A DNA stretch of 41,096 bases, taken from the IMG/VR virus record IMGVR_UViG_3300030708_001584, positions 1 to 41,096 of that record. The stretch is one strand, 5' to 3'. Positions 1,317 through 22,376 of this stretch are shown one piece after another. A program made the translations under genes and the position numbers. The notes under the pieces were generated by a model that saw nothing but the letters and a program-made list of their open reading frames with translations, had not been told where the DNA came from and ran no database searches. How positions within the stretch are numbered: the first letter of the stretch is position 1; every line of letters starts with the position of its first letter. This stretch comes from a virus. Lineage: Duplodnaviria; Caudoviricetes.

Positions 1317-1537
1317 GCAGCAGCCTATGGCTAGTAACCTATTAACTATATTGGAGCGCACATAGATATTAGACCACTAATGCATATCATCAGTCATTAA
1401 AAAAGAATCGTTTATTATCATTAAAATTTATTATTGTTTATTTTAACATTAAAAAAATTTTAGAGCAAAGCATATGGTGTGAACTTTGTGATTACACCCC
1501 ATATATCAGGTAAATGATACTACAAGTGAGGTTTATT

Positions 1538-1930
1538 ATGAAAAATAGATTAGTAGAATACTTAGAACGAGAAGTTGATTGGAAAAATGATAGCATTAGA
1601 GAGGAATATGGTATCAAATATTACTTTGATGAAGATGTATGTTTTGAGGAATGGTTAGAAGCAATTCCTCAAGAATTGTGGGAAAAGCACAATTTAGAGG
1701 AACCTGATGATATTCTTGAAACTAGTGATGCTGATGCTATTGCTGACTTAATGTTGCATCTGAAAGAATGGTGCAAAGAATACTTTAGTCGCAAAAATAT
1801 TAGAAAAGGTATTGATGCCCGTAGAAGAGAAGATGAAAGAGATGCTAGGACTCAAGCGGCTGAAATGGGTTATCATGACTATTATGGTGGTAGTTATTAT
1901 CCATCAGAAGGCGGTTATTCCTATTATTAA
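1538..1930 (+). CDS. hypothetical acidic protein with Tyr/Gly-rich tail (module 1)
   Basis: ORF track; GAGGT RBS favours ATG 1538. Confidence 0.8.
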   Translation: MKNRLVEYLEREVDWKNDSIREEYGIKYYFDEDVCFEEWLEAIPQELWEKHNLEEPDDILETSDADAIADLMLHLKEWCKEYFSRKNIRKGIDARRREDERDARTQAAEMGYHDYYGGSYYPSEGGYSYY

Positions 1931-1936
1931 CCAAAT

Positions 1937-1957
1937 GCGCCCTTCGGGGCCTTTTTT
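1937..1957 (+). terminator. hairpin plus T-tract ending module 1
   Basis: GCCC-TTCG-GGGC followed by CTTTTTT just after the stop codon. Confidence 0.7.
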
Positions 1958-2090
1958 ACAAAGTTAGTGCCATATGGTTTGAAATATGATATTATGAAAT
2001 GTATTGAATAATATCTTATGAATACCTGATAAATAAGGTTTAATTACATACCAACCATATGCTCCCGTAACTTTGTGATTTAATGGGGGC

Positions 2091-2198
2091 CTATTGGCCC
2101 GTTTGGTCATTTTGGGTGCAAAAGCACCTATAACAGACGGTGCGACCGCAGTTTTTCGATATTACCACATTACACATATCACATCTTGACTTCATCAT
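2091..2198 (-). CDS. 35-aa Zn-finger microprotein (MMKSRCDMCNVVISKNCGRTVCYRCFCTQNDQTGQ), module 2
   Basis: Manual translation; GGTGA RBS, two CxxC pairs, GGGCC/GGCCC hairpin at the stop. Confidence 0.7.
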   Translation of the reverse strand: MMKSRCDMCNVVISKNCGRTVCYRCFCTQNDQTGQ

Positions 2199-2381
2199 TA
2201 TTCACCTTTTGTCTCATTGTATCTGTATCTCTCATTAATACATCTATTTATGATGGGATTCCTCAAAGTTACAATCATATGGTTCTACTTTGAAAGAAGC
2301 CTAATTTATACATTAAACACTAAGTAGGTTGCGTCATCGAGAAAGGCTGATGCAGGAGAAACAACAAAAAGGTGATAAAAA

Positions 2382-2930
2382 ATGAGTAAAACAAGTTATT
2401 ACATGGATGATGAAAAATGGGATGCTACCCGTAGTAAGGTAGACGCTTGGATAGAGCAAAACGGAGATAATCCGATTGTGCCTGTTATTACGGGTATTCT
2501 AGACCAAGCACAAGAAAATGCAGATTCGCGTAAGCGATTATGGGGTGCTATTACAGCAATGTTCAGCACTGTTGATAATTCCCCAATTAAGAAGGGTAAG
2601 CCCAGAGAATCGCTACCTGACGCGGTTGAAGTGCGAATTAGCGGTATTGTTGCTAATGTTACAGCAAACAAGGCACAGGAATATATGGATAATCCATATT
2701 GTGCGCTTGAAAGCCGTAGTCGTGTTACAGCCACTTCAGAGGTCTTTTTCGGAACAGCAGAAGAATACGGTGAATACCACGGTAATCGCGTAGAACGAAT
2801 GCTAATCGACGCATATAGAGCGCATGTTAAGAATGATGAAAATGCCCGCGTATTGTGGGATGGTGAGTCAATGAATGGTGATATGCCTGATTTGCAGGTA
2901 ATTGCTCCAAATACGGAGGAAGAGGAGTAA
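2382..2930 (+). CDS. hypothetical protein, paralog of 4783-5289 (module 3)
   Basis: 182-aa ORF with GGTGA RBS; shares NADSR, SPI, LP, WDG and terminal EEE with the paralog. Confidence 0.88.
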   Translation: MSKTSYYMDDEKWDATRSKVDAWIEQNGDNPIVPVITGILDQAQENADSRKRLWGAITAMFSTVDNSPIKKGKPRESLPDAVEVRISGIVANVTANKAQEYMDNPYCALESRSRVTATSEVFFGTAEEYGEYHGNRVERMLIDAYRAHVKNDENARVLWDGESMNGDMPDLQVIAPNTEEEE

Positions 2931-3025
2931 TCCTAGCATTGTAAGTCCTTTCTCGGTGGCCCCCTTATGGGGGTTTGCCATTACATTAGACAAAGTAGCA
3001 AACCATATGGTGTGACTTTGTTTAA

Positions 3026-3037
3026 CCCTATTATATA
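3026..3037 (+). promoter_or_regulatory. archaeal TATA-like promoter CCCTATTATATA just inside the ACTTTG arm
   Basis: Similar elements at 4703-4713 (+), 4428-4440 (-) and 2245-2257 (-), each oriented towards the module's gene. Confidence 0.55.
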
Positions 3038-3057
3038 GAAATAAATGAATAAAGACC

Positions 3058-3357
3058 ATGAGAGCCATAACACGCGACGCAGTAAGAGCATTCTGCAACA
3101 ACTATAAGTTTAAGCGGGATAATACCGAAATAAGAATCATTGAAAGAGATAATTATATTATAACACAAATGCGACTTCATGGGAATGTTATTGCGGAAAA
3201 GATGCCGAGCGGGTTTTATATCTCAACGTGTGGATGGGCAACAAATACAACAAAGGAACGCTTAAACGGTTTTAACGGGGTAAATATCGTTCAACGTAAT
3301 TATGAGTGGTATTTGAACGGTGAACACTGGAACGGTCAAAGGATAAAGGTGTTTTGA
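3058..3357 (+). CDS. phage-type hypothetical protein (LHGNxIA...CGWxTxTTKERLN), module 4
   Basis: 99-aa ORF; motif recalled from small viral proteins; probably leaderless. Confidence 0.8.
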   Translation: MRAITRDAVRAFCNNYKFKRDNTEIRIIERDNYIITQMRLHGNVIAEKMPSGFYISTCGWATNTTKERLNGFNGVNIVQRNYEWYLNGEHWNGQRIKVF

Positions 3358-3363
3358 ACATAT

Positions 3364-3379
3364 TGACCCTTTAGGGTCA
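3364..3379 (+). terminator. hairpin ending module 4
   Basis: TGACCC-TTTA-GGGTCA. Confidence 0.5.
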
Positions 3380-3457
3380 TATTATTCTCAAAGTTTTATG
3401 ACCATATGGTTGCACTTTGAGCAAGACGATAATAGACCATTTAATATAATTAAGACG

Positions 3458-3703
3458 GTGATAACCATTAGAACAGCATACCAGATATATAGGAACAATA
3501 AGCCAACCAGTGAGTTTTACTCATACAAAAGGGAGGCACAGAACGAAATTGATAGCAGAAATAAGTTTGCTATCCGCCAAATCATGAAAGATGTAAATCG
3601 AATGAATGGCGCACTTAGAGGCCGAAATCGAGAAGCCTTTGAAGAAGCGGTTGATTCCGTAGCAAACCCACCTTACACAATCGTAGAAATACGTATTGAG
3701 TAA
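3458..3703 (+). CDS. hypothetical protein (module 5), start uncertain
   Basis: The ORF-track ATG 3398 lies inside the repeat site; GTG 3458 or non-canonical ATT 3467 after GGTGA are more plausible. Confidence 0.65.
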   Translation: MITIRTAYQIYRNNKPTSEFYSYKREAQNEIDSRNKFAIRQIMKDVNRMNGALRGRNREAFEEAVDSVANPPYTIVEIRIE

Positions 3704-3849
3704 TTTGGGATGCTTAGGCAGTTCTTAGAACGTAAGTCCTAAATGTCCCAATTTGGGTCATAATCACAAAGTTATGACCATATGGTTTGACTTTGCACAA
3801 AGCCTGAAATAGAGATAAAACAGGAATATCAGGAGCGTAAACACTTATA

Positions 3850-4165
3850 CTCGGTTAAGTTGGGTTTCAAGGCTACTACCAGTTATCGCGCGATTCTGGC
3901 CCTTTACTCCTACCCAATTAACTTTCAAATGCAATACTCCGTCAATCCCTGCTATCCGTCAAGGGGGAATATGAAAAAGAGTTTAACGGACTCTTTGTAA
4001 GACAATCATTATCATAATCAGAACATCGTTTATGATTTAACACCGTTCAATATCTGCTTTACGTTTTTATTTAACCCTTTGATACGCATATGGGCGGCAA
4101 GCGTTACACGGCGAAAAACGATAATCCGTGACTAACTAATTATATTCAAAGCAGATAGTTTGAAT
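3850..4165. ncRNA. putative structured RNA in module 6
   Basis: No long ORF; helices GTTAAGTTGGGT/ACCCAATTAAC, AAAGAGT/ACTCTTT, CACGG/CCGTG, and TATCTGCTTT (4051-4060) with AAAGCAGATA (4148-4157). Confidence 0.45.
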
Positions 4166-4166
4166 A

Positions 4167-4271
4167 TTAACTATTGTAAGGCCAATAGCAATGAACATTG
4201 GAACAGACAGGTAATCCATCTTCATCTCCAATAATATCATAATTGCATAAATGGCATTTAGAGCGTTTCAT
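4167..4271 (-). CDS. 34-aa Zn-finger microprotein (MKRSKCHLCNYDIIGDEDGLPVCSNVHCYWPYNS), module 6
   Basis: Manual translation; GAGGTG RBS; ATGA overlap with the upstream ORF. Confidence 0.7.
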   Translation of the reverse strand: MKRSKCHLCNYDIIGDEDGLPVCSNVHCYWPYNS

Positions 4272-4351
4272 TCGTAACACCTCTTGCATTTAGTATTAAC
4301 AATCCTATAACACTTAGAACAAAACTTAATAGATTCAAACCAATCATACAT
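4268..4351 (-). CDS. 27-aa Zn-finger microprotein (MYDWFESIKFCSKCYRIVNTKCKRCYE), module 6
   Basis: Manual translation; GGAGG RBS; two CxxC pairs. Confidence 0.65.
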   Translation of the reverse strand: MYDWFESIKFCSKCYRIVNTKCKRCYE

Positions 4352-4782
4352 CTGGAACCCTCCAATTCACCAAAAGAAAGGAAGGCGGTCAGTAATAGGT
4401 CATTCATGTCTCTATTACTGTTTGATGTATATGAATAGGGTTTCTCAAAGTAAAACCATATGGTAGTATTAAGAAAAATAATAATTTATTATTTTGAATC
4501 TATTAGCACAGTCGGAACTGCTGGTCTGATTGTCTAGAATCCTAGACACTTATCCGGCCACTTTTGACTACTTTATGTATCTTAACCTATTCGTAATAAC
4601 TAGCCATAATGGTTTATTTTTTACACCAATTCGCTATTTCTCATTTCTCACGATTCTCATAGACATTCAACAACCATATGCTCCTAACTTTGTAAAAAGG
4701 AGCCTATTATATACCCCTGTAAAGTGGGAGTATTGTCCAGCGAGGACAGGAAGAACATAACTTAGTAAAACAGGTGATTAAA

Positions 4783-5289
4783 ATGAATGACGCAGAATGG
4801 AATAGTATGAAAGTAGAACTTGAAGAGTTCTTTAGTGTATCAACACAGGACACTTCAGCAGTTCAGGGTGTTTATGCAGGATTAGCCGCTATGGGCGATT
4901 CTAACGCAGATTCCCGAACTGGAGCAAAGAAGGCACTACAAGCATTATTGAAGGACTTTGATGGTTCTCCAATTAATAGGCGTGGAAGCCGTGGAAACCT
5001 ACCTACCACAGTAGCAGTAGTTCTTGACCAACTATCGGTTGAACTACGTGATGCAATTGCAGCCGCTTTTGACTCAAACCCTAACTTTAGGGCTATTGTC
5101 CACCGACACGGAAAAGCCGTTTCTAACGGTGCTTCTCCGAATTATACGGATGGTGCAGAGTTTGGTGCTTATATCGCTGGAAAGGCGCGAAAGGCTGGTG
5201 CAAGCCTTTATTCCTCCGGTGATTGGGATGGGTCATTAGACACCTTAGTTTCTACTATCACTGAAACGGAGGTTTACGAAGAGGAATGA
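4783..5289 (+). CDS. hypothetical protein, paralog of 2382-2930 (module 7)
   Basis: AGGTGA RBS before ATG 4783; motifs shared with the paralog. Confidence 0.88.
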   Translation: MNDAEWNSMKVELEEFFSVSTQDTSAVQGVYAGLAAMGDSNADSRTGAKKALQALLKDFDGSPINRRGSRGNLPTTVAVVLDQLSVELRDAIAAAFDSNPNFRAIVHRHGKAVSNGASPNYTDGAEFGAYIAGKARKAGASLYSSGDWDGSLDTLVSTITETEVYEEE

Positions 5290-5314
5290 TTCTTCCTTTT
5301 CGTTCTCGCTGGAC

Positions 5315-5373
5315 AAACCCCCTAATCTGGGAATTGGGCTTAATTGCCTGATTCTCAGGTTAGGGTTTTTTTT
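5315..5373 (+). terminator. long hairpin plus T-tract ending module 7
   Basis: CCCTAATCTGGGAATTGGGC pairs with GCCTGATTCTCAGGTTAGGG, followed by a T run. Confidence 0.75.
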
Positions 5374-5711
5374 ATTTTCAAAGTATAAAACAACCATATG
5401 GTCCTAAAAAAATAAATTAGGCATTACTATATTTCGCCGCCATAGGCCCCCCTCTGACTATAAATACCTCACGCAGCACGTAGATATGTTGAGCCTAATT
5501 AGTTATTATGCCTTTCAAACACGCTTATTTCCTAGTTACTATGTATAAACCCTCTACTTATTGGTCTTACATATTACCCTACTCACAATTGGTCTTTCTT
5601 AAGGTCAATTCCAATTAACATTAGTATAATATTACATACTTCATACTGAATACTCTTATATTAATACTAATATTGATATTAACGTATGCGTCTAATATCT
5701 AATGCAACTGG

Positions 5712-7594: not shown

Positions 7595-7671
7595 GGGTCT
7601 ATGGCTTAGTCAGGTAGAGCGACGGGCTTTTAATCCGTTGGTCGGGGGTTCAAATCCCTCTAGACCCACCA
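7595..7671 (+). tRNA. tRNA-Lys(UUU) with encoded CCA
   Basis: Acceptor GGGTCTA/TAGACCC, anticodon loop CTTTTAA, T-loop TTCAAAT. Confidence 0.95.
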
Positions 7672-8047: not shown

Positions 8048-8130
8048 GCAGGTATATCCGAGTTGGTCAAAGGAGCCGGAGTTAAGTTCCGGTGCAAAAT
8101 GCTTCGTAGGTTCGAATCCTACTACCTGCA
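8048..8130 (+). tRNA. tRNA-Leu(UAA) with long variable arm
   Basis: Acceptor GCAGGTA/TACCTGC, CCGGA-GTTAAGT-TCCGG anticodon arm, GTAGGTTCGAATCCTAC T-arm. Confidence 0.92.
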
Positions 8131-8140
8131 CTTATATTCT

Positions 8141-10691: not shown

Positions 10692-10892
10692 ATGAATATG
10701 GTTAAAAAGTTTGTTCAGAATCAAAAAATTAAGAATTGTAATCATGCATTATCTACATATGTGGATAAACATCAAGTAATAAAAGAAAATACCATAGAAG
10801 AAACACATATATTTACTTGTCCTGAATGTGGTGGTAAAGGGACACAATTACACGTAATTGAAAGATATATAACATGGGAGCGTGAAGAATAA
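10692..10892 (+). CDS. small Zn-ribbon protein
   Basis: CNH...CPECG. Confidence 0.7.
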   Translation: MNMVKKFVQNQKIKNCNHALSTYVDKHQVIKENTIEETHIFTCPECGGKGTQLHVIERYITWEREE

Positions 10893-12064
10893 TGGAAGAA
10901 TTAGTATTACCAAAGAGAGCATTAGGAAATGGAAAATGGGACCGTATGTTAAAGAAGCGTATGGTCGAATTATCCGTAGCAGATAATTATGAAGAAGCAA
11001 AGCATGAATGGGTAGCAACTGGAAGAATCTGGTATATTCCCTTTTTAGGAGATTATGCAGAAGATGGTAATAATTATCTAAATGAGTTTAATGCAGAATC
11101 TAATTGCACTCATCATACAGGAAAGTGTTTATGCGGTCATAGAATTGTTTGGCACTTTGAAATTCATAATACAGAAAATGATAATTATGAGATTGTAGGT
11201 TCAGACCATATTGAATCATATCTAATTATTCGTGAGATTTCTGAAAGAACTGGTCTAAGTGAAGATGAGATTACTGATGAAATGATTGAAGAATGGTTAG
11301 ATACTCGCGTTAAGTCGCTAAAGGCTCAATGGTGGTGGGATAGAAACGGTGAATTGTTTGAAGATATGTTTAATGCAGTTAAAGAAATTGACTTACGTTT
11401 TAATGTAAGAGAAACTGGAACATATTATGATTATGAATTAGCAATGAATCGCCCTAAGACAAAAATTAGAAAGCGTGGAACTGGACAGTTTGGAGATTAT
11501 GATTACAAAATGGCTTCAATTGTTTGGAGATGGAATCATCCTGATAATCCAAAGGCTCAAATCAATACAACAGGTTATCCTAATGACCGTCTTTATCAGG
11601 ATTTAATTATCTTTTATTCTCAAGTGCAGGATTTTAGAGATAGAATGCAAAAAGAAGATGACTTCCTAGAAAAGAGAAGGGAAGAAATTCAAAACGGTAG
11701 AGAACAAACTAGGAGAAATGAGGCAATTCGTGTAGCGAATTCTATGCGTGAAGCAAGAAATGATGATTCTTTTGCAGAAGCGTGTGAGTTCTATGGAATT
11801 GAGCCATTTTCTGAAGAGATTGGTTCTAATGATTGGGAAAGAAGGTTCCTTAGAGATGTTAGAACTAGAATAATCGACGGAAAAAATCTTAGTGATAAGC
11901 AGATGGACGTTTTACGCAGGATTTTAACTCCTAATAATGACCCACCAACAGAAAAGCAATTAAATTTCTTGAATCGTTTAGGGTATGATGGTGAACAACC
12001 TAATACAAAAACAGAAGCAAGTAGGCTTATTGATGGTATTATGAAAGAAAGGAGAGGTGAATAG
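10892..12064 (+). CDS. hypothetical protein with a CxCGH.I...VGS Zn motif and C-terminal PTEKQ..L..LG motif
   Basis: 390-aa ORF. Confidence 0.8.
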   Translation: MEELVLPKRALGNGKWDRMLKKRMVELSVADNYEEAKHEWVATGRIWYIPFLGDYAEDGNNYLNEFNAESNCTHHTGKCLCGHRIVWHFEIHNTENDNYEIVGSDHIESYLIIREISERTGLSEDEITDEMIEEWLDTRVKSLKAQWWWDRNGELFEDMFNAVKEIDLRFNVRETGTYYDYELAMNRPKTKIRKRGTGQFGDYDYKMASIVWRWNHPDNPKAQINTTGYPNDRLYQDLIIFYSQVQDFRDRMQKEDDFLEKRREEIQNGREQTRRNEAIRVANSMREARNDDSFAEACEFYGIEPFSEEIGSNDWERRFLRDVRTRIIDGKNLSDKQMDVLRRILTPNNDPPTEKQLNFLNRLGYDGEQPNTKTEASRLIDGIMKERRGE

Positions 12065-12066
12065 TA

Positions 12067-12279
12067 ATGACTGATATAACACATATAGAACTATCATCAA
12101 CTAGATATGATGAAATAAAGGAAGCGATGTTTATGCAACATGTAGAAATAAATAATTTAAGGGCGTTAGTGCGCCATTATGAAAAAACAATAAATATTCT
12201 CACAGGTCGGCTTATGGAGCAAGGGGAAGTTCTTATAGACCCCGACGATGTGGGAAAAGTAACAACGGAGAGTGAATAA
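12067..12279 (+). CDS. small coiled-coil protein
   Basis: ORF track; GAGGTGA RBS. Confidence 0.7.
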   Translation: MTDITHIELSSTRYDEIKEAMFMQHVEINNLRALVRHYEKTINILTGRLMEQGEVLIDPDDVGKVTTESE

Positions 12280-12280
12280 A

Positions 12281-12484
12281 ATGAGATTGAGAATATTAAA
12301 TGAAACTGGACATACTGTATTAGAAGTGAATGCTGAAGAAATTGTGGAGTATATTGATGACCATCCCGCCCATTGGGTGTTTGTAGATGGTGAAATCGTA
12401 TCGAGAGAAGATATACGTCAAATTGATTGGACTCAAATTGAGTCAGTAGATTTAACACCCGCAATTGTCGGCGGTATTAACTAA
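12281..12484 (+). CDS. ubiquitin-like (ThiS/MoaD/SAMP beta-grasp) protein ending VGG-IN
   Basis: MRLRIL...VFVDGE...VDLTPAIVGG pattern. Confidence 0.75.
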   Translation: MRLRILNETGHTVLEVNAEEIVEYIDDHPAHWVFVDGEIVSREDIRQIDWTQIESVDLTPAIVGGIN

Positions 12485-15328: not shown

Positions 15329-16486
15329 ATGGCAGATTTTGTAGAAGCGTTATTCGATACATTTGATGATTCTAGTAAAAGAATTAGCACTGAATTTGAA
15401 TATACCTTTACTTACGAAGGTAATGTTAAATGGTCTAATCATCGTAATACAATACGTTTTAGAAGAGACGGTGAAAATTTTGATACCTCTTGGCTAACTC
15501 AATTTATGGGTATTCAAAGAGGAAGAACTGTTGATGGTATTCATCAATTTAAGATAGATGATTTTATTTTACATGTTGAGCGAAGAAATAAAACATATTA
15601 TGTTATGGGTTCTTTATTAAATAAATCAGAGACAGTTCTATTGATTACTAGAGTTTTATATAAATCATGCTTTAGTAGGGATTTAACAGAGTTATTAGAA
15701 TATACAATGAAAGCAATTTCATTCCCGACTAATGTAATGTATGCAATAGAAAATAGAGCGCCTTATAAGTTTGTAAAGGATTTAAATTGGGTAGAGTCAA
15801 GATTAAATGTTGAAGCAATTTCTATGACTGAATGTGCTATTGAAATTTCAGATGGTATTTGGGCTAATATATCTATTAAAGACCTAGATACATTTGTTAA
15901 TGCATTTAAAGGGCAAGGTTCAAAACGTTCTAAGAAGTGGAAGAATTGTTCTCCTAAGAAATTATGGAAAACTCTAATGGGTAAAGAACCTAAAGAAACT
16001 GAATTGAATTTGATGGTTGAGTTTTTAGAACAGAATAGAACTCAAGAGATTGTTGAAAAGAGAGCAAGAGAACTAATGGATGAAATGTTAGTAGATTATC
16101 CAGACAGGATTAAAATCATAACAAAGTCAGACAGAACATACATGTTAGTTAAGGGTAAAATAACTGATTGGATTATTACAGATGAAGCATATAAAACACA
16201 AACACAAAAGGTTTCTACTTTCTTATTTAGTAGAGATGAAGATAAAAGAGGAAGACCTTTTGGTGATGGTTATTTATATCCTAAAGGCGGAATATGTATT
16301 GATAATGTAAGCACAACTTCTAGTGTTGGCGACCAATTTGCTGCGAGAGCATTTGCATTACTAAATGATAATATGACTTTACAATTAGTTAGCACCATTA
16401 GACCTTATGTTTATGATAAGAGTAAAGAAGTAATTTCAGATAGATTAGATTGGGATTACGATTATAGTAAGGAGGAATCAGAATGA
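15329..16486 (+). CDS. hypothetical protein; C-terminal domain with a GGICID motif (candidate E2-like or DUF4132 C-terminal-like domain)
   Basis: 385-aa ORF; function inferred only from motif and context. Confidence 0.7.
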   Translation: MADFVEALFDTFDDSSKRISTEFEYTFTYEGNVKWSNHRNTIRFRRDGENFDTSWLTQFMGIQRGRTVDGIHQFKIDDFILHVERRNKTYYVMGSLLNKSETVLLITRVLYKSCFSRDLTELLEYTMKAISFPTNVMYAIENRAPYKFVKDLNWVESRLNVEAISMTECAIEISDGIWANISIKDLDTFVNAFKGQGSKRSKKWKNCSPKKLWKTLMGKEPKETELNLMVEFLEQNRTQEIVEKRARELMDEMLVDYPDRIKIITKSDRTYMLVKGKITDWIITDEAYKTQTQKVSTFLFSRDEDKRGRPFGDGYLYPKGGICIDNVSTTSSVGDQFAARAFALLNDNMTLQLVSTIRPYVYDKSKEVISDRLDWDYDYSKEESE

Positions 16487-17391
16487 AATGTAGTGAATGT
16501 AATAGTAGAAAATTTGAATATGATGAAAGATTACAGCAGAATTGTTGTATTGATTGTGGATTTGTAATGGTTGAATCAGCATTTGAAGAAACAGTTCAGA
16601 TTAAATATGGAGATGATGATACTTTTAGGGCTGGAGATAAAGGAACTTTAGGTTCTCTTATTGGTGAATCGCAACCAGAATCTAAACACCTAAAAAGAGC
16701 ATTAAGAACCACTAGAGCAAGAGTTCAATCTAATATATTTACAAAGAATGGTGAAAGAGAAGTAAGGTTTTATAACGTATTAAAGGTTCTTTTGTCTAAT
16801 TATAATACGAGTAATGGTGAATCTATTAAAAGAATAAGTGATGATATTATAACTTATTTTAGGCGTTTAGATAAAAGTCATGATTTGAGGGGTTATACCA
16901 ATGATGAAAGAGCAGCCGCTTTGAGTTACATAGTATTTAGAGAACATGGTTGGCCTGTATCTTTACATTCTATATCTAAACATTCTGATGTAGAAAGAGG
17001 TAGAGTTTCAAAGGTAGCAAGAACTTTTGCTAGAAAATTAGGTAAAACTACGATATTAAGTCAAGTTCCCTTTGTTTCTTGGTGTGAAAGAGAAGCGAAT
17101 ATTATGGGCGGAGAAGAGTTTGGAATTGCTATAATTAATATTGCACCATTAATGCAGAATTTTTTTATGGAATATGGCTTTCCACTTACTAGAGTTCAAG
17201 TAGCCACTACAATGTATTTGTGTAATTTATTGTGTGGTTTTAAATATACACAGAAAAATATCGGTAAACAATTGAAAACTTATCCAATTTCAATAAGAGA
17301 TAGTTTACAAAGGATTTGCGCTCAATTAAATATTAAGCGCGATGATTTACTCACTATGAGTATGGATGATTTTATTAATGGAGTGTTTTGA
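16483..17391 (+). CDS. tfb: transcription factor TFB/TFIIB-like protein
   Basis: N-terminal CSEC...CIDCG ribbon, LGSLIG B-reader region, two cyclin-like repeats (AAALSYIVFR, TQKNIG). Confidence 0.85.
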   Translation: MKCSECNSRKFEYDERLQQNCCIDCGFVMVESAFEETVQIKYGDDDTFRAGDKGTLGSLIGESQPESKHLKRALRTTRARVQSNIFTKNGEREVRFYNVLKVLLSNYNTSNGESIKRISDDIITYFRRLDKSHDLRGYTNDERAAALSYIVFREHGWPVSLHSISKHSDVERGRVSKVARTFARKLGKTTILSQVPFVSWCEREANIMGGEEFGIAIINIAPLMQNFFMEYGFPLTRVQVATTMYLCNLLCGFKYTQKNIGKQLKTYPISIRDSLQRICAQLNIKRDDLLTMSMDDFINGVF

Positions 17392-17392
17392 A

Positions 17393-17968
17393 ATGAGAAA
17401 AATAATGATTATAGGAGCAGGAGGAATTGGTAGTTTTCTAATTCCTTTACTAGATAGAACAGGGTTGTATGATATTACAGTGTTTGACCCAGATAAGGTT
17501 GAAACAAAGAATCTTACTTATCAAAACTTTAAGAAGGGTCATGTAGGACAAAATAAGGCTTTAGTTATGCGTCAAGAATATTCTAACGTAACACATGCTA
17601 GTCAATTTAAAGTTTTAACACCAAGTCAAATTAGCGGATATGATATTGTTGTTTGTTGTGCAGATAATTTAGATGTAAGAAGGCTTCTTTATCGTCAAGG
17701 TTTTGGTGAAGATACTAATTTAAAGTGGTTAGATACAAGAGCGCAAGGAAGAAATGGTGCTGTAATATCTTACAAAGTAGATAAAAATCTAGCAAGCACT
17801 CTTTTAGCCGGTAAAGAAGGTTCTTTTTCCTGCCAAGGAGAAAACTGGGATGGTAGTGCTAAGGGAGTAAATTATATGCAAGTGGTTGTAGCGGGTCTTG
17901 CTATTCAATGGTTACAAAATTACTTCATTGATAATGAAGTATTTGAATATAAGGTGGTGAATGCCTAA
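17393..17968 (+). CDS. ThiF/E1-like ubiquitin-activating adenylyltransferase
   Basis: IIGAGGIGS, FDPDKVETKNLTYQ, CADN, SCQ. Confidence 0.9.
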   Translation: MRKIMIIGAGGIGSFLIPLLDRTGLYDITVFDPDKVETKNLTYQNFKKGHVGQNKALVMRQEYSNVTHASQFKVLTPSQISGYDIVVCCADNLDVRRLLYRQGFGEDTNLKWLDTRAQGRNGAVISYKVDKNLASTLLAGKEGSFSCQGENWDGSAKGVNYMQVVVAGLAIQWLQNYFIDNEVFEYKVVNA

Positions 17969-18399
17969 TGGAATGGAATAATGAAATAAATGATATATGG
18001 AACTTAATACAGAAGACGACTAAGAATGTAACAGATTTATACCCTGTTATATGGAAAACTTCTATGGAGAATGATAATAGAGAAGTGCAAGTTGTTATTG
18101 ATGCTAATGATAATATATATTCTTCAATAGGAAACCCTTCCTTTGTTGCATTTATGCAAGAACCTGTTGGATTAACATTACCTATTAAAGAATGGATTCA
18201 TACGCATCCTTTTGGTAGTGCTTATTTCAGTGGAACTGATATTAGAACTGTAAGAACATTTGAACCAGTTATGGAAAGAGCAACTGTATTAGGTTTTAAT
18301 CAAATAGCAACTTGGACTCCTTTGTTTCAAGAACCTTATGAACACTTTGTTTGGTTACATGAAGATGTAGATTATATTCATGGGGATGAGGAAGAATGA
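17968..18399 (+). CDS. JAB/JAMM metalloprotease
   Basis: REV...WIHTHP...FSGTD (E-HxH-S-D). Confidence 0.88.
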   Translation: MEWNNEINDIWNLIQKTTKNVTDLYPVIWKTSMENDNREVQVVIDANDNIYSSIGNPSFVAFMQEPVGLTLPIKEWIHTHPFGSAYFSGTDIRTVRTFEPVMERATVLGFNQIATWTPLFQEPYEHFVWLHEDVDYIHGDEEE

Positions 18400-19535: not shown

Positions 19536-19657
19536 TGGGAAGAATCAAACAGATAAAAATAGCATATGAAGAAGGAAAGTCCGTAGAAGAAATAGCAAAT
19601 AGTTTAGGGATAAAATATTCTGTTGTAAGGAAAATATTATCGAAGGTGAACGAATGA
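19535..19657 (+). CDS. 40-aa helix-turn-helix microprotein
   Basis: Manual translation GKSVEEIANSLGIKYSVVRKIL; GGAGG RBS. Confidence 0.72.
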   Translation: MGRIKQIKIAYEEGKSVEEIANSLGIKYSVVRKILSKVNE

Positions 19658-21183
19658 CTCTAATTGCATTTTCAAGAATGATGCAAGCAGTAGAGCGTTC
19701 TACTCCTTCAAGGTCTGAAACTATTATTAAGGATAGTTGGGCTTCTTTCGATGACCCAGAACTATTAACTAAAATTATGGCTCTTGAATATGAACCTACT
19801 AATGTTGGTTCAACAAGAGCAAAGAAATGGGTTGCTAAAGCACTAGGATTATTTGATGATGAGTTAGATAACCTTGAATCTCTTTATGGTGACTTTACAG
19901 AGGGAATCTATTTAGATTCACAAAATAGTGTTGATTCTTCTATTACATTACGTGAACTAGATAATTTACTTTCAATGGATTGTAGTAGTATTTCCGGCCC
20001 CTCATACCGCCTGTTTCAAGAGGCATTATCGCGCATGAGTGGGGTTGAACGTAAGTGGTTCCTTCGTTTTTGGCTACGGAATCCGAGAAATGGTCTTAGA
20101 AAAGGTAATCTAGAAAAGGTGCTTAGTAAGATATACGAAAAGCCTCTAAAGCAAATTCGTAAAGATTTATCATACCATAACCTATCTGAAATTGTTTCAT
20201 ATTACATTATGAATGAACAACCTCCGGTGCTTCTATCCTTTGGTCAGTTTATCAAACCAATGTTAGCAAAACCCCTAGTTTCTAAGAAAAAGAAGTTCAA
20301 GGGTGGTATAGTAGATTACAAGTATGATGGTAATAGATACCAAATACATCGCAATAGAGAGTTAGTTATTATCTTCAATAGAAGGGGCAAAGTAGTTACG
20401 GACCAATATCCTGATGTTGTTGAAGATGTATTACAATGGGAACAAACATCATTTATATTAGATACTGAAATATATCCAATTAATCCTGATGGTAGTCCTG
20501 CTCCACATAAAGTTCTTGGAACTAGAGTTCATTCAAAGAATAAAACAGAAGCAGTAGAAAAGTGTCCTGTAAAGATGGTAATATTTGATGCTATGAAAGT
20601 TGGAGAAACAGTTCTTATTGATATGTCTTTAACTGAAAGATTAAATTATATTTCTGATTTCCCTAATCAAGCAACAAGATGGTTAGAACCGGAATCAAGA
20701 AAAGCCTGTTATAATCAAGCAATAGCAGAAGGGTTTGAAGGAATTATGATTAAAAATCCCGATGCTCCTTATGCACCCGGAAAAAGAAGTAATGATTGGT
20801 TAAAACACAAACCACCTCTAATTGAATTAGATGTTGTTGTTTTAGGAGTCAAATATGGTGACGGTAAAAGGTCAGATGTATTTGGTAGTTATTTAATTGG
20901 TGTAAAGGATGGTAATAATTTTCAAAGTATTGGTTGGGTCGGAAGTGGTTTATCCGATTTACAATTAATGAGTTTAACTAGAACACTTCGTAAGCACATA
21001 GAATCTTATGATAAAGGTATTATGTTTACATTACCTAGAGTTGTTCTAACAGTGAAGTCAGATTTAATATCTACTAATGCAGATGGAACTATTGGGCTTA
21101 GATTCCCTAGAGTTTCAGCAATAAGAGATGATAAACCAGTATCAGATATTGATACTATTGAAAGAGTAAAGGAGTTGATGTAA
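19654..21183 (+). CDS. lig: ATP-dependent DNA ligase
   Basis: KPMLA, KYDG, EGIMIK, WLKHK, LRFPR. Confidence 0.96.
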   Translation: MTLIAFSRMMQAVERSTPSRSETIIKDSWASFDDPELLTKIMALEYEPTNVGSTRAKKWVAKALGLFDDELDNLESLYGDFTEGIYLDSQNSVDSSITLRELDNLLSMDCSSISGPSYRLFQEALSRMSGVERKWFLRFWLRNPRNGLRKGNLEKVLSKIYEKPLKQIRKDLSYHNLSEIVSYYIMNEQPPVLLSFGQFIKPMLAKPLVSKKKKFKGGIVDYKYDGNRYQIHRNRELVIIFNRRGKVVTDQYPDVVEDVLQWEQTSFILDTEIYPINPDGSPAPHKVLGTRVHSKNKTEAVEKCPVKMVIFDAMKVGETVLIDMSLTERLNYISDFPNQATRWLEPESRKACYNQAIAEGFEGIMIKNPDAPYAPGKRSNDWLKHKPPLIELDVVVLGVKYGDGKRSDVFGSYLIGVKDGNNFQSIGWVGSGLSDLQLMSLTRTLRKHIESYDKGIMFTLPRVVLTVKSDLISTNADGTIGLRFPRVSAIRDDKPVSDIDTIERVKELM

Positions 21184-21665: not shown

Positions 21666-21975
21666 ATCATTACGAAATGATTACGAAGAAGTAACTCAAT
21701 TTATTTTTATGGTGTATGGACCTTTTGGAGAAAGAGATTTTAAGATTTTAGAATATTCTTTGAAGGATATATTAAATGAAAAAGAATCATTTTATATTTT
21801 CGATGATGTAAACAGGAAAGATGCGGAGACATTTAATATTTTTGAAGGATTATCCTTTCAATTATTTGTTGGAGGAAAACTAGATGAATATACTCAAACA
21901 GCAATTACTAATACCTTAACAGAAGGTTTTAATTATTTAAGAATAAAGGCAGAATTTTATGGAGTTGTATCTTAA
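21637..21975 (+). CDS. hypothetical protein
   Basis: 112-aa ORF within the operon. Confidence 0.7.
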   Translation: MVKKWKKRLESLRNDYEEVTQFIFMVYGPFGERDFKILEYSLKDILNEKESFYIFDDVNRKDAETFNIFEGLSFQLFVGGKLDEYTQTAITNTLTEGFNYLRIKAEFYGVVS

Positions 21976-22376
21976 TGTTTACCAAAGAACAACTTCAAGG
22001 AATTTTACTTTCATTACCGAAATGTGAAATACATATCAACCAAGCAAATAATATTGATATTGGTTATCGAGTGCGTCTAAGAATAAATTTTAGAGCCTCT
22101 TCTAGTGATTTCTTATTAGCCCTGCAAAGAACACTGACTCAATATGAGATTAAATCAACCTTCAAGGAAATAGAACACAAGAGTAGACCAAAACCTATTC
22201 TTAGAGTAAGTGGACATAAAGATGTTTATTTACTTTCTAAATTAATACCCGATTTACCAGATGCTAAAAACGAATGGAAGAAAAATCTAGAAATAATTGA
22301 TATTGTTTCTAGTGGCCAGCATTTAGAATTGCCCGGTCTTGAAAGAATATTTGAATTAAAGGAAGTGTTAGGCTGA
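21975..22376 (+). CDS. degenerate LAGLIDADG-fold protein
   Basis: LQGILLS in place of LAGLIDG, followed by GYRVRLRINF...FLLAL. Confidence 0.6.
   Translation: MFTKEQLQGILLSLPKCEIHINQANNIDIGYRVRLRINFRASSSDFLLALQRTLTQYEIKSTFKEIEHKSRPKPILRVSGHKDVYLLSKLIPDLPDAKNEWKKNLEIIDIVSSGQHLELPGLERIFELKEVLG

Follow-up and report, generated by a model that had tools for sequence, protein, structure and literature searches.

The virus record IMGVR_UViG_3300030708_001584 (Duplodnaviria, Caudoviricetes) contains, at positions 1471-5400, an array of small gene units that meet at sites with a palindromic CATATG core. We refer to the whole stretch of DNA analysed, a complete 41-kb virus record of 41,096 nt, as the window. 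The array has a unit structure, an invariant core, joints that fall at this core, and unit-end stems that covary with a strand bias. Several described systems share some of these properties. In integrons, IntI is encoded beside the array, cassettes enter at attI, one attC site is formed from both cassette ends, and cassettes pass through circular intermediates. In shufflons, an invertase gene lies beside the invertible segments.

Like integrons, the locus described here is a cassette array with a distinct end site and with folded single-strand DNA as its likely substrate. Unlike integrons, it has no IntI that could be found, each end folds alone, units stand in both orientations with their own promoters, and the end site is no hot spot. 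It differs from shufflons in that no invertase was found (PF00589 in 0/5 and PF00239 in 0/5 relatives).

The remaining comparisons draw on passages of the accounts cited. Acinetobacter plasmid dif modules (pdif/XerCD) have fixed 11-bp XerC and XerD arms, alternating C and D modules and varying spacers (PMC13141974). As in dif modules, neighbouring units here share one site, the crossover falls in an identical 6-bp spacer, units invert, are lost and relocate, and the enzyme does not lie beside the array. Unlike in dif modules, the spacer here is one invariant palindrome and any end joins any end, single units are gained and lost, and the position of the arm, which is in a hairpin loop, varies (3-13 bp from the core). 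T4-type PeSLs are one-directional repeats of sigma-70-like promoters that are thought to recombine by homology, with minicircles demonstrated (PMC2839356). The two systems share a lytic virus, a variable region of small ORFans with a promoter and a stem-loop (here sequence motifs), modular shuffling and the lack of an identified recombinase. In contrast to PeSLs, the units described here have symmetric ends with a conserved stem on opposite strands at the two ends, their crossovers stop at the 6-bp core, they invert, and no minicircles were seen.

REP/BIME elements and IS200/IS605 ends are read by HUH Y1 enzymes (PMC8266576). They resemble our unit ends in having a short conserved tag that lies 5' of a DNA hairpin specific to one strand, conserved loop bases and inverted pairs, features that we deduce here from sequence statistics. 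Unlike in those elements, the tag here is a palindrome common to neighbours and is itself the crossover, the stem sequence is free, the cargo consists of whole genes, and no Y1 enzyme was found in the viruses tested. Halovirus HF2, a tailed archaeal virus, similarly has repeated intergenic motifs beside TATA boxes, but these are direct promoter repeats, and the passages of PMC8707807 on them describe no palindromic core or shuffling. Organised like dif modules, in the niche of T4 PeSLs and with ends like those of REP and IS200/IS605, the array fails a defining feature of each system.

We found no earlier account of the array in the literature searched, which did not extend to supplements or subscription papers, and word searches of the text of the magrovirus papers PMC11706807, PMC5434244, PMC10160649 and PMC12999244 gave no passage on a cassette, palindrome, hairpin or recombinase. 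The array is confirmed and widespread, and its site anatomy, with a hairpin at each unit end, is unlike that of any single described system. Pending identification of the enzyme, we class it as a variant form of cassette array.

Ten CATATG sites delimit an array of gene units

We identified 14 matches to CAAAGT-N3-12-CATATG in the window, all within 1471-5400 and at ten CATATG cores, and none elsewhere (chance expectation 0.11; 0/100 shuffles gave more than one). These are exactly the ten positions that an initial sequence-only reading of the window had listed, and its seven modules and four full sites likewise agree with the sequence. The sites delimit seven gene units (A to G) and two short armless spacers (s1 and s2; Table 1). 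That reading had left the two armless stretches between its modules; they also behave as units. It had given the arm as ACTTTG; arms exist, but the motif is broader, RCTTTG. The left edge of the array is a distinct anchor, in which an A-tract and GCAAAG abut the core. A further CATATG at 4087 lies within a module, lacks arms and is not a boundary.

Pattern scans of viral and metagenome contigs, with overlaps removed, yielded 70 arrays with 513 sites and later 134 arrays with 896 sites. A terminal anchor was present in 80/134 arrays, a figure inflated by the array search method and lowered by cut-off loci. The core hexamer is CATATG in 378/378 fully armed sites that were located without naming the hexamer. 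At every joint it is flanked, in consensus, by GTWGKR and the complement, forming an 18-bp palindrome that overlaps the stems described below. This palindrome is also present on armless sides when these are picked from the opposite side (227 ends), and GT is retained in 228/254 armless sides.

Arms occur as inward-facing pairs and therefore belong to the segment they face. Among 443 segments, 338 are armed at both ends, 69 are armless and 36 are one-armed. Two-armed segments have a median length of 684 bp, and 203 of them contain an open reading frame (ORF) of at least 90 amino acids (aa); armless segments have a median of 148 bp and include one such ORF. A coding unit, as judged from its motifs, combines a promoter-like TATA and a ribosome site with between one and three small genes, followed by a terminator-like hairpin. 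The TATA-like stretch lies downstream of the upstream end and the terminator-like hairpin just before the downstream end.

One protein family, F0, is encoded in one or two copies in 67/70 arrays, and it stands alone among 360 clusters. F0 proteins are all-helical with basic glycine-rich loops. We considered F0 as the recombining enzyme and rejected it, as the family has no conserved catalytic set of residues. It has no solved relative by sequence and no Atlas match, and a model (pLDDT 86) gave no fold match past a three-helix bundle (Z 6.6), which is not proof of a new fold. Some genomes have an additional F0 copy outside the array. The array also marks small unknown proteins, F0 foremost, that the virus keeps under rapid exchange. 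Both minus-strand modules of the window (B and F) encode cysteine-rich microproteins of 34-35 aa. A non-coding RNA in unit F was considered and rejected, with no Rfam match and no strong folding signal.

Among the loci compared, armless spacers match almost only other arrays, and an origin as captured host or virus DNA was rejected. In several arrays, at least three armless non-coding units of 90-350 bp each follow one another (L031 1138-3065, L042 5469-6615, L023 6109-6402). Many armless ends have a TGAAA motif, and some armless units fold end to end. The armless units in these runs could be small RNAs or decoy DNA.

Each unit end forms its own predicted hairpin

Arms lie 3-13 bp from the core, most commonly at a gap of 5, which gives an 11-6-11 layout. 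The sequence-only reading had taken the variable spacing to fit a folded single-strand DNA substrate or separately bound elements. Stem covariation and strand bias argue for folding, but of each end alone and not across the site. We rejected a fold of the whole site as one palindrome, since the two arms that flank a core match each other no better than ends drawn at random from that array (gap difference 2.05 versus 1.74 +/- 0.09). Instead, both ends of a unit consist of 5'-CATAT, a stem starting from the final G of the core, a loop with RCTTTG, and a returning strand that ends in ACC. The longer the gap from core to arm, the greater the distance from arm to ACC (Spearman 0.62, n=541), since the nucleotides separating core and arm pair with those that follow the arm. 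Every unit end represents a short hairpin of its own, and the variable arm spacing therefore equals stem length.

Watson-Crick pairing in 697 distinct ends is 0.687, compared with 0.583 +/- 0.004 in a control that swapped 3' parts among ends of equal gap and, like the real ends, was scored in the register maximising pairs. At variable stem positions, the values are 0.599 and 0.476. Of the 18 ends without an initial GT, 17 are compensated, four of them in a form common to the window and its closest relative, L158. Between homologous ends, double stem changes kept the pair in 14 cases (some redundant), produced a wobble in 3 and broke it in 5, and single changes produced G·T in 23, A·C in 4, G·A in 17 and other combinations in 20. 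Stems stop at the core's last G, as the next base would extend pairing in 8% of 791 ends.

Mispairs in the 697 ends differ by kind: A·C occurs 109 times versus 231 in the control, and G·T 393 times versus 451. This strand bias is present both at upstream ends (29 versus 60.5 +/- 6.2) and at the downstream ends, which are antisense (22 versus 53.8 +/- 6.1). With G·T kept and A·C avoided at both ends, the fold is favoured on the strand that has its 5' end at the core. At the downstream end this strand is antisense, which points to hairpins that act as single-strand DNA rather than mRNA.

Relatives differ by whole-unit changes at the core

We compared module content, order and orientation among relatives, a check proposed with the sequence-only reading, and found whole-unit changes at the core. 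In L158, which is ~90% identical to the window, the order is A E B(inverted) s1(inverted) C D F s2 G; in the window it is A s1 B C D E F s2 G. Unit E has thus moved and the two-unit block s1+B is inverted, with every new joint at a CATATG core. The L158 order, including inverted unit B, recurs in contigs of metagenome runs X11 and X14. The A|E joint of that order, which places unit E second (1969>3402), is found in these two runs and in X7. These runs represent three studies, and the joints share 7-10 letters. The window's own order is found in contigs of X2, X4 and X5. Spacer s1 has different neighbours in L225 and L235, and in X5 the interior of unit A is swapped for another allele. X6 contigs lack cover at 1962-2315, which proves nothing.

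Over the 134 arrays, pairs of homologous ends agree in their partner in 445 cases and differ in it in 180. In 61 distinct partner switches, the switched side matches only up to the consensus, like random ends, and 8/61 diverge at the first base past CATATG; about six of the 61 have long matches and are probably diverged homologues. All inversion breaks (7/7, from four genome pairs) have an end no more than 13 nt from a core. Ends within 30 nt of a core make up 10/14 for inversions and 8/14 for order changes, against a background of 11%. About 10 of 13 printed single-unit insertions or deletions (indels) are clean, three of these being armless spacers. Crossovers are resolved to 6-10 bp and fall within the identical 6-bp core common to neighbouring units. 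The sequence-only reading had described portable cassettes joined in either orientation at a 6-bp palindrome, and these moves, inversions, switches and indels at the core bear it out.

Some units that are 79-87% identical, s1 among them, are shared by viruses whose core proteins are 44-64% identical, and only 0-19% of the flanking DNA reaches that identity level. The s1 copy in L291, for example, is 84-86% identical, while the L291 core protein is only 45% identical. Units have apparently been exchanged between distant viruses.

Mixed orientation was found in 25/62 arrays. Partners change less often at the anchor (0.13) than at interior sites (0.26-0.37), and the anchor is no hot spot. Integron-like polarity is therefore not seen. 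Nor did we see shufflon-like fast switching in the contigs of eight runs.

A proposed cut-and-join mechanism and its rivals

We propose that the locus is a cassette array whose units are exchanged at CATATG by a dedicated cut-and-join reaction guided by the predicted end hairpins, a reading to which we assign a probability of roughly 60%. Stems would extrude on the strand with its 5' end at the core, that is, the top strand at the left end and the bottom strand at the right end; a protein would assist extrusion, as the stems are short. A nuclease or recombinase would then cut both strands within the core. As the core is palindromic and identical everywhere, any end could be sealed to any other, in either direction and without a scar. 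One armed side seems sufficient, which would allow armless spacers to move as well. Co-infecting viruses may trade units by this route, and the acting enzyme could be a conserved viral protein or a host enzyme. Stem extrusion, cutting in the core, rejoining in any order and exchange in co-infection are steps that we infer, the site-specific cut-and-join because no known enzyme was found and no excised circle was seen.

Several observations weigh against this proposal. Most indel ends lie inside units (93/116) and only 23/116 near a core; general recombination is therefore active in the array too. Flips are a minority (17/384 end pairs), and 159/187 coding units point in their array's majority direction. 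The arrays are related, and the counts given above are not independent events. No excised circle or self-joined unit was found in 188 metagenome loci or in the eight runs, and no inversion joint in contigs of X2, X4, X5 and X6, all of these being contigs, which drop rare forms. Each of the two arrangements persists from study to study and over years, and rearrangement events are therefore slow. The stems are weak in the window (0 to -6 kcal/mol), and 406/1205 ends lack three perfect foot base pairs in an ungapped register, which 791 have. Finally, the relatives tested contain no enzyme of a known recombining family.

A bolder extension, which we hold only tentatively, is a standard for sticky ends common to an entire order of lytic archaeal viruses, in which a virus enzyme of an undescribed family, guided by hairpins, would cut the palindromic core, join any units either way and represent a new class of cassette recombination. 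In one possible version, a dimer bound to the 18-bp core, with the conserved LAGLIDADG-like protein as binder, would open ATAT at the hairpin feet and the viral ligase would seal the ends. If this were true, distant viruses would trade genes like standard parts.

The strongest competing explanation, unlikely in our judgement though it deserves weight, is that the sites, bound by a viral factor, regulate or insulate early units and that shuffling is a by-product of general recombination on a 10-18 bp palindrome, combined with selection for intact units, as has been suggested for T4-type PeSLs. Such a model of PeSL recombination is given in passages of PMC2839356. The virus group has suitable proteins, including a Sak4-like annealase (G002 homologue), ERCC4 and PD-(D/E)XK nucleases and a ligase; no recombinase was found, events are slow, and a TATA-like stretch follows the upstream stem while a terminator-like hairpin accompanies the downstream one. 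Regulation of this kind does not account for an identical hairpin at the downstream end, on the antisense strand, or for an invariant core and the GT retained on armless sides. Stem and loop also travel with the unit, crossovers end at the core, and homology at the joints is far below the ~50 bp cited for T4 (passages of PMC2839356).

Arm distances that vary from 3 to 13 bp and track stem length argue against the sites being rigid dif-like duplexes recognised by an Xer-type tyrosine recombinase of the host, as in Acinetobacter dif modules. Strand-biased wobbles are likewise unexpected for a duplex site, and none of 13 GTDB matches was an array in a contig titled Poseidoniales. This explanation is improbable, even though the identical 6-bp spacer between neighbours, inversion, relocation and an enzyme encoded off the element all recall passages of PMC13141974, and the commonest gap yields the 11-6-11 layout.

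It is more improbable still that the hairpins act in RNA, as processing or termination signals, with incidental DNA changes. G·U tolerance is typical of RNA stems and the units are separate transcription units, but at the downstream hairpin it is the antisense strand that is favoured, the upstream hairpin precedes the TATA-like box, and joints at the core would be left unexplained. We give almost no credence to misassembly at short repeats: the data consist entirely of metagenome assemblies, as contigs and not raw reads, but the 7-10 letters shared at joints are far under assembly word sizes, and the alternative order recurs in independent studies with ~10% divergence throughout.

The array provides a defined site and a testable substrate for accessory-gene shuffling in lytic viruses, an issue still unsettled for T4 PeSLs. 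A dedicated enzyme, should there be one, would join DNA parts scarlessly, in whatever order and direction, using hairpins of free sequence as its handles, and would offer a new recombination tool.

Searches for the enzyme

Pfam searches of 43 window proteins detected no IntI or tyrosine recombinase and no known recombinase family, in agreement with the sequence-only reading, which had recognised no recombinase in the window. The wider search for tyrosine, serine and HUH enzymes that had been proposed with it was made in relatives, five per family, with records that differed between families. Tyrosine recombinases (PF00589; near-complete relatives, positive control 14/14) and serine recombinases (PF00239) were each found in 0/5. 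HUH Y1 enzymes (PF01797) were above the cut-off in 0/5, a lone 15-bit match being a 61-aa ORF without HxH, and telomere resolvases (ResT/TelK, PF16684) were found in 0/5 (control detected in 1/14). PHROGs searches of 61 and Pfam searches of 30 chosen proteins of relatives, as opposed to all ORFs, revealed no recombining enzyme. A conserved 374-404 aa protein near the anchor has no recombinase motif. The conserved early protein of the window (Table 1) gave no family match and only unnamed viral clusters in an Atlas search; a model of its residues 1-270 gave no fold match (best Z 3.4), which is not proof of a new fold.

Two neighbouring genes provide leads. The ATP-dependent DNA ligase might be the joining enzyme. 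The LAGLIDADG-like protein encoded next to it, present in 10/10 records, is a possible binder of the palindromic core. Its helix lacks the catalytic acid in 11/11 sequences, with an invariant Lys in that turn, and the protein could therefore at most bind. It is tied to the array solely by co-occurrence, which is common to all core genes. LAGLIDADG enzymes cut 22-bp sites across four central bases and leave cohesive 3' ends (passages of PMC3394308); by analogy, cleavage around ATAT would lie at the base of the two hairpins. In G002 (L168:2046-4565, minus strand) and G005, an 840-870 aa protein of the head-morphogenesis block carries a second ATP-dependent ligase domain.

Distribution of the array

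We fetched loci by an unrelated core gene, independently of the motif, and used those with at least 8 kb upstream, which were 48 of the best 80 of 129 matches (32 shorter loci were excluded). The array is present in 48/48 of these loci, which include a few near-duplicates and have a median core protein identity of 43%. A scan of relatives for the motif had been suggested by the sequence-only reading. In 4/4 full genomes, the sites form a single cluster, located where the structural block meets the early block. When GTDB was scanned strictly for full sites, 13 stretches were returned, with only one multi-site contig, NZ_NZTP01000027.1 (L151-L153), in an Altibacter bin. This contig has a full array and also carries the conserved non-coding element of the virus, and is therefore probably a mis-binned virus.

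The window encodes a split PolB, a ligase, a clamp loader, an ERCC4 nuclease, a TFB-like protein and ThiF. Its relatives have genomes of 92-103 kb, with structural and early genes on opposing strands. The ICTV profile of Magrovirales describes genomes of 90-110 kb, opposed morphogenesis and replication modules, PolB, primase and ligase (passages of PMC12999244). The window virus and its relatives appear to fit Magrovirales in gene content and genome layout; the label rests on gene content because no named record matched. The ocean viruses that carry the array likely infect archaea, and the array seems to be a fixed feature of viruses of a highly abundant uncultured marine archaeal group.

Other features of the window

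Table 1. Features of the window, with predicted end hairpins given by strand.
Feature	Position	Strand	Description
Conserved non-coding element	599-715	none	blastn match in 55/70 array loci; outside the anchor end
Anchor site	1451-1476	none	A/T tract and GCAAAG in contact with the CATATG core; loop motif that lacks a stem
Unit A	1471-1976	+	ORF 1514-1930, 138 aa, function unknown; hairpins 1476-1498 (+), 1948-1971 (-)
Armless spacer s1	1971-2061	none	mobile non-coding unit
Unit B	2056-2281	-	35-aa CxxC microprotein 2091-2198; hairpins 2061-2090 (+), 2257-2276 (-), both with compensated stem-base changes
Unit C	2276-3009	+	F0-family protein 2382-2930; hairpins 2281-2301 (+), 2972-3004 (-)
Unit D	3004-3408	+	Kyano_Gp96-family protein 3058-3357 (Pfam PF23790, E 5e-14); hairpins 3009-3027 (+, weak), 3375-3403 (-)
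Unit E	3403-3784	+	ORF ending 3703, ~80 aa; hairpins 3408-3427 (+), 3756-3779 (-)
Unit F	3779-4462	-	34-aa cysteine-rich microprotein 4167-4271, remainder without long ORF; hairpins 3784-3804 (+), 4439-4457 (-)
Armless spacer s2	4457-4680	none	
Unit G	4675-5400	+	second F0-family protein 4783-5289; hairpins 4680-4703 (+, compensated), 5364-5395 (-)
Conserved early protein	10892-12064	+	CLCGH and MASIVWRWNHP motifs, many invariant residues
ATP-dependent DNA ligase	19654-21183	+	Pfam PF01068, E 1e-37
Single-domain LAGLIDADG-like protein without catalytic acid	21975-22376	+	profile match to solved LAGLIDADG enzymes, E 2e-9

Homologues of the conserved non-coding element lie 245-871 bp from the anchor where an anchor was called. 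The element could be an origin, a packaging signal or a genome-end signal, and a weaker copy lies near 205-240. The early block contains a ThiF E1-like enzyme and a TFB zinc ribbon by Pfam, within 12272-12484 and 15329-18399; ubiquitin-like and JAB-like proteins were assigned by eye in the same intervals. On the structural side of G001, G002, G004 and G005, many ORFs start with M-S/T-W-x-x-I-L-K, and one family ends similarly; this motif is possibly a head-packaging or cleavage signal. The window also contains genes for tRNA-Lys(TTT) at 7595-7671 and tRNA-Leu(TAA) at 8048-8131, both on the plus strand.

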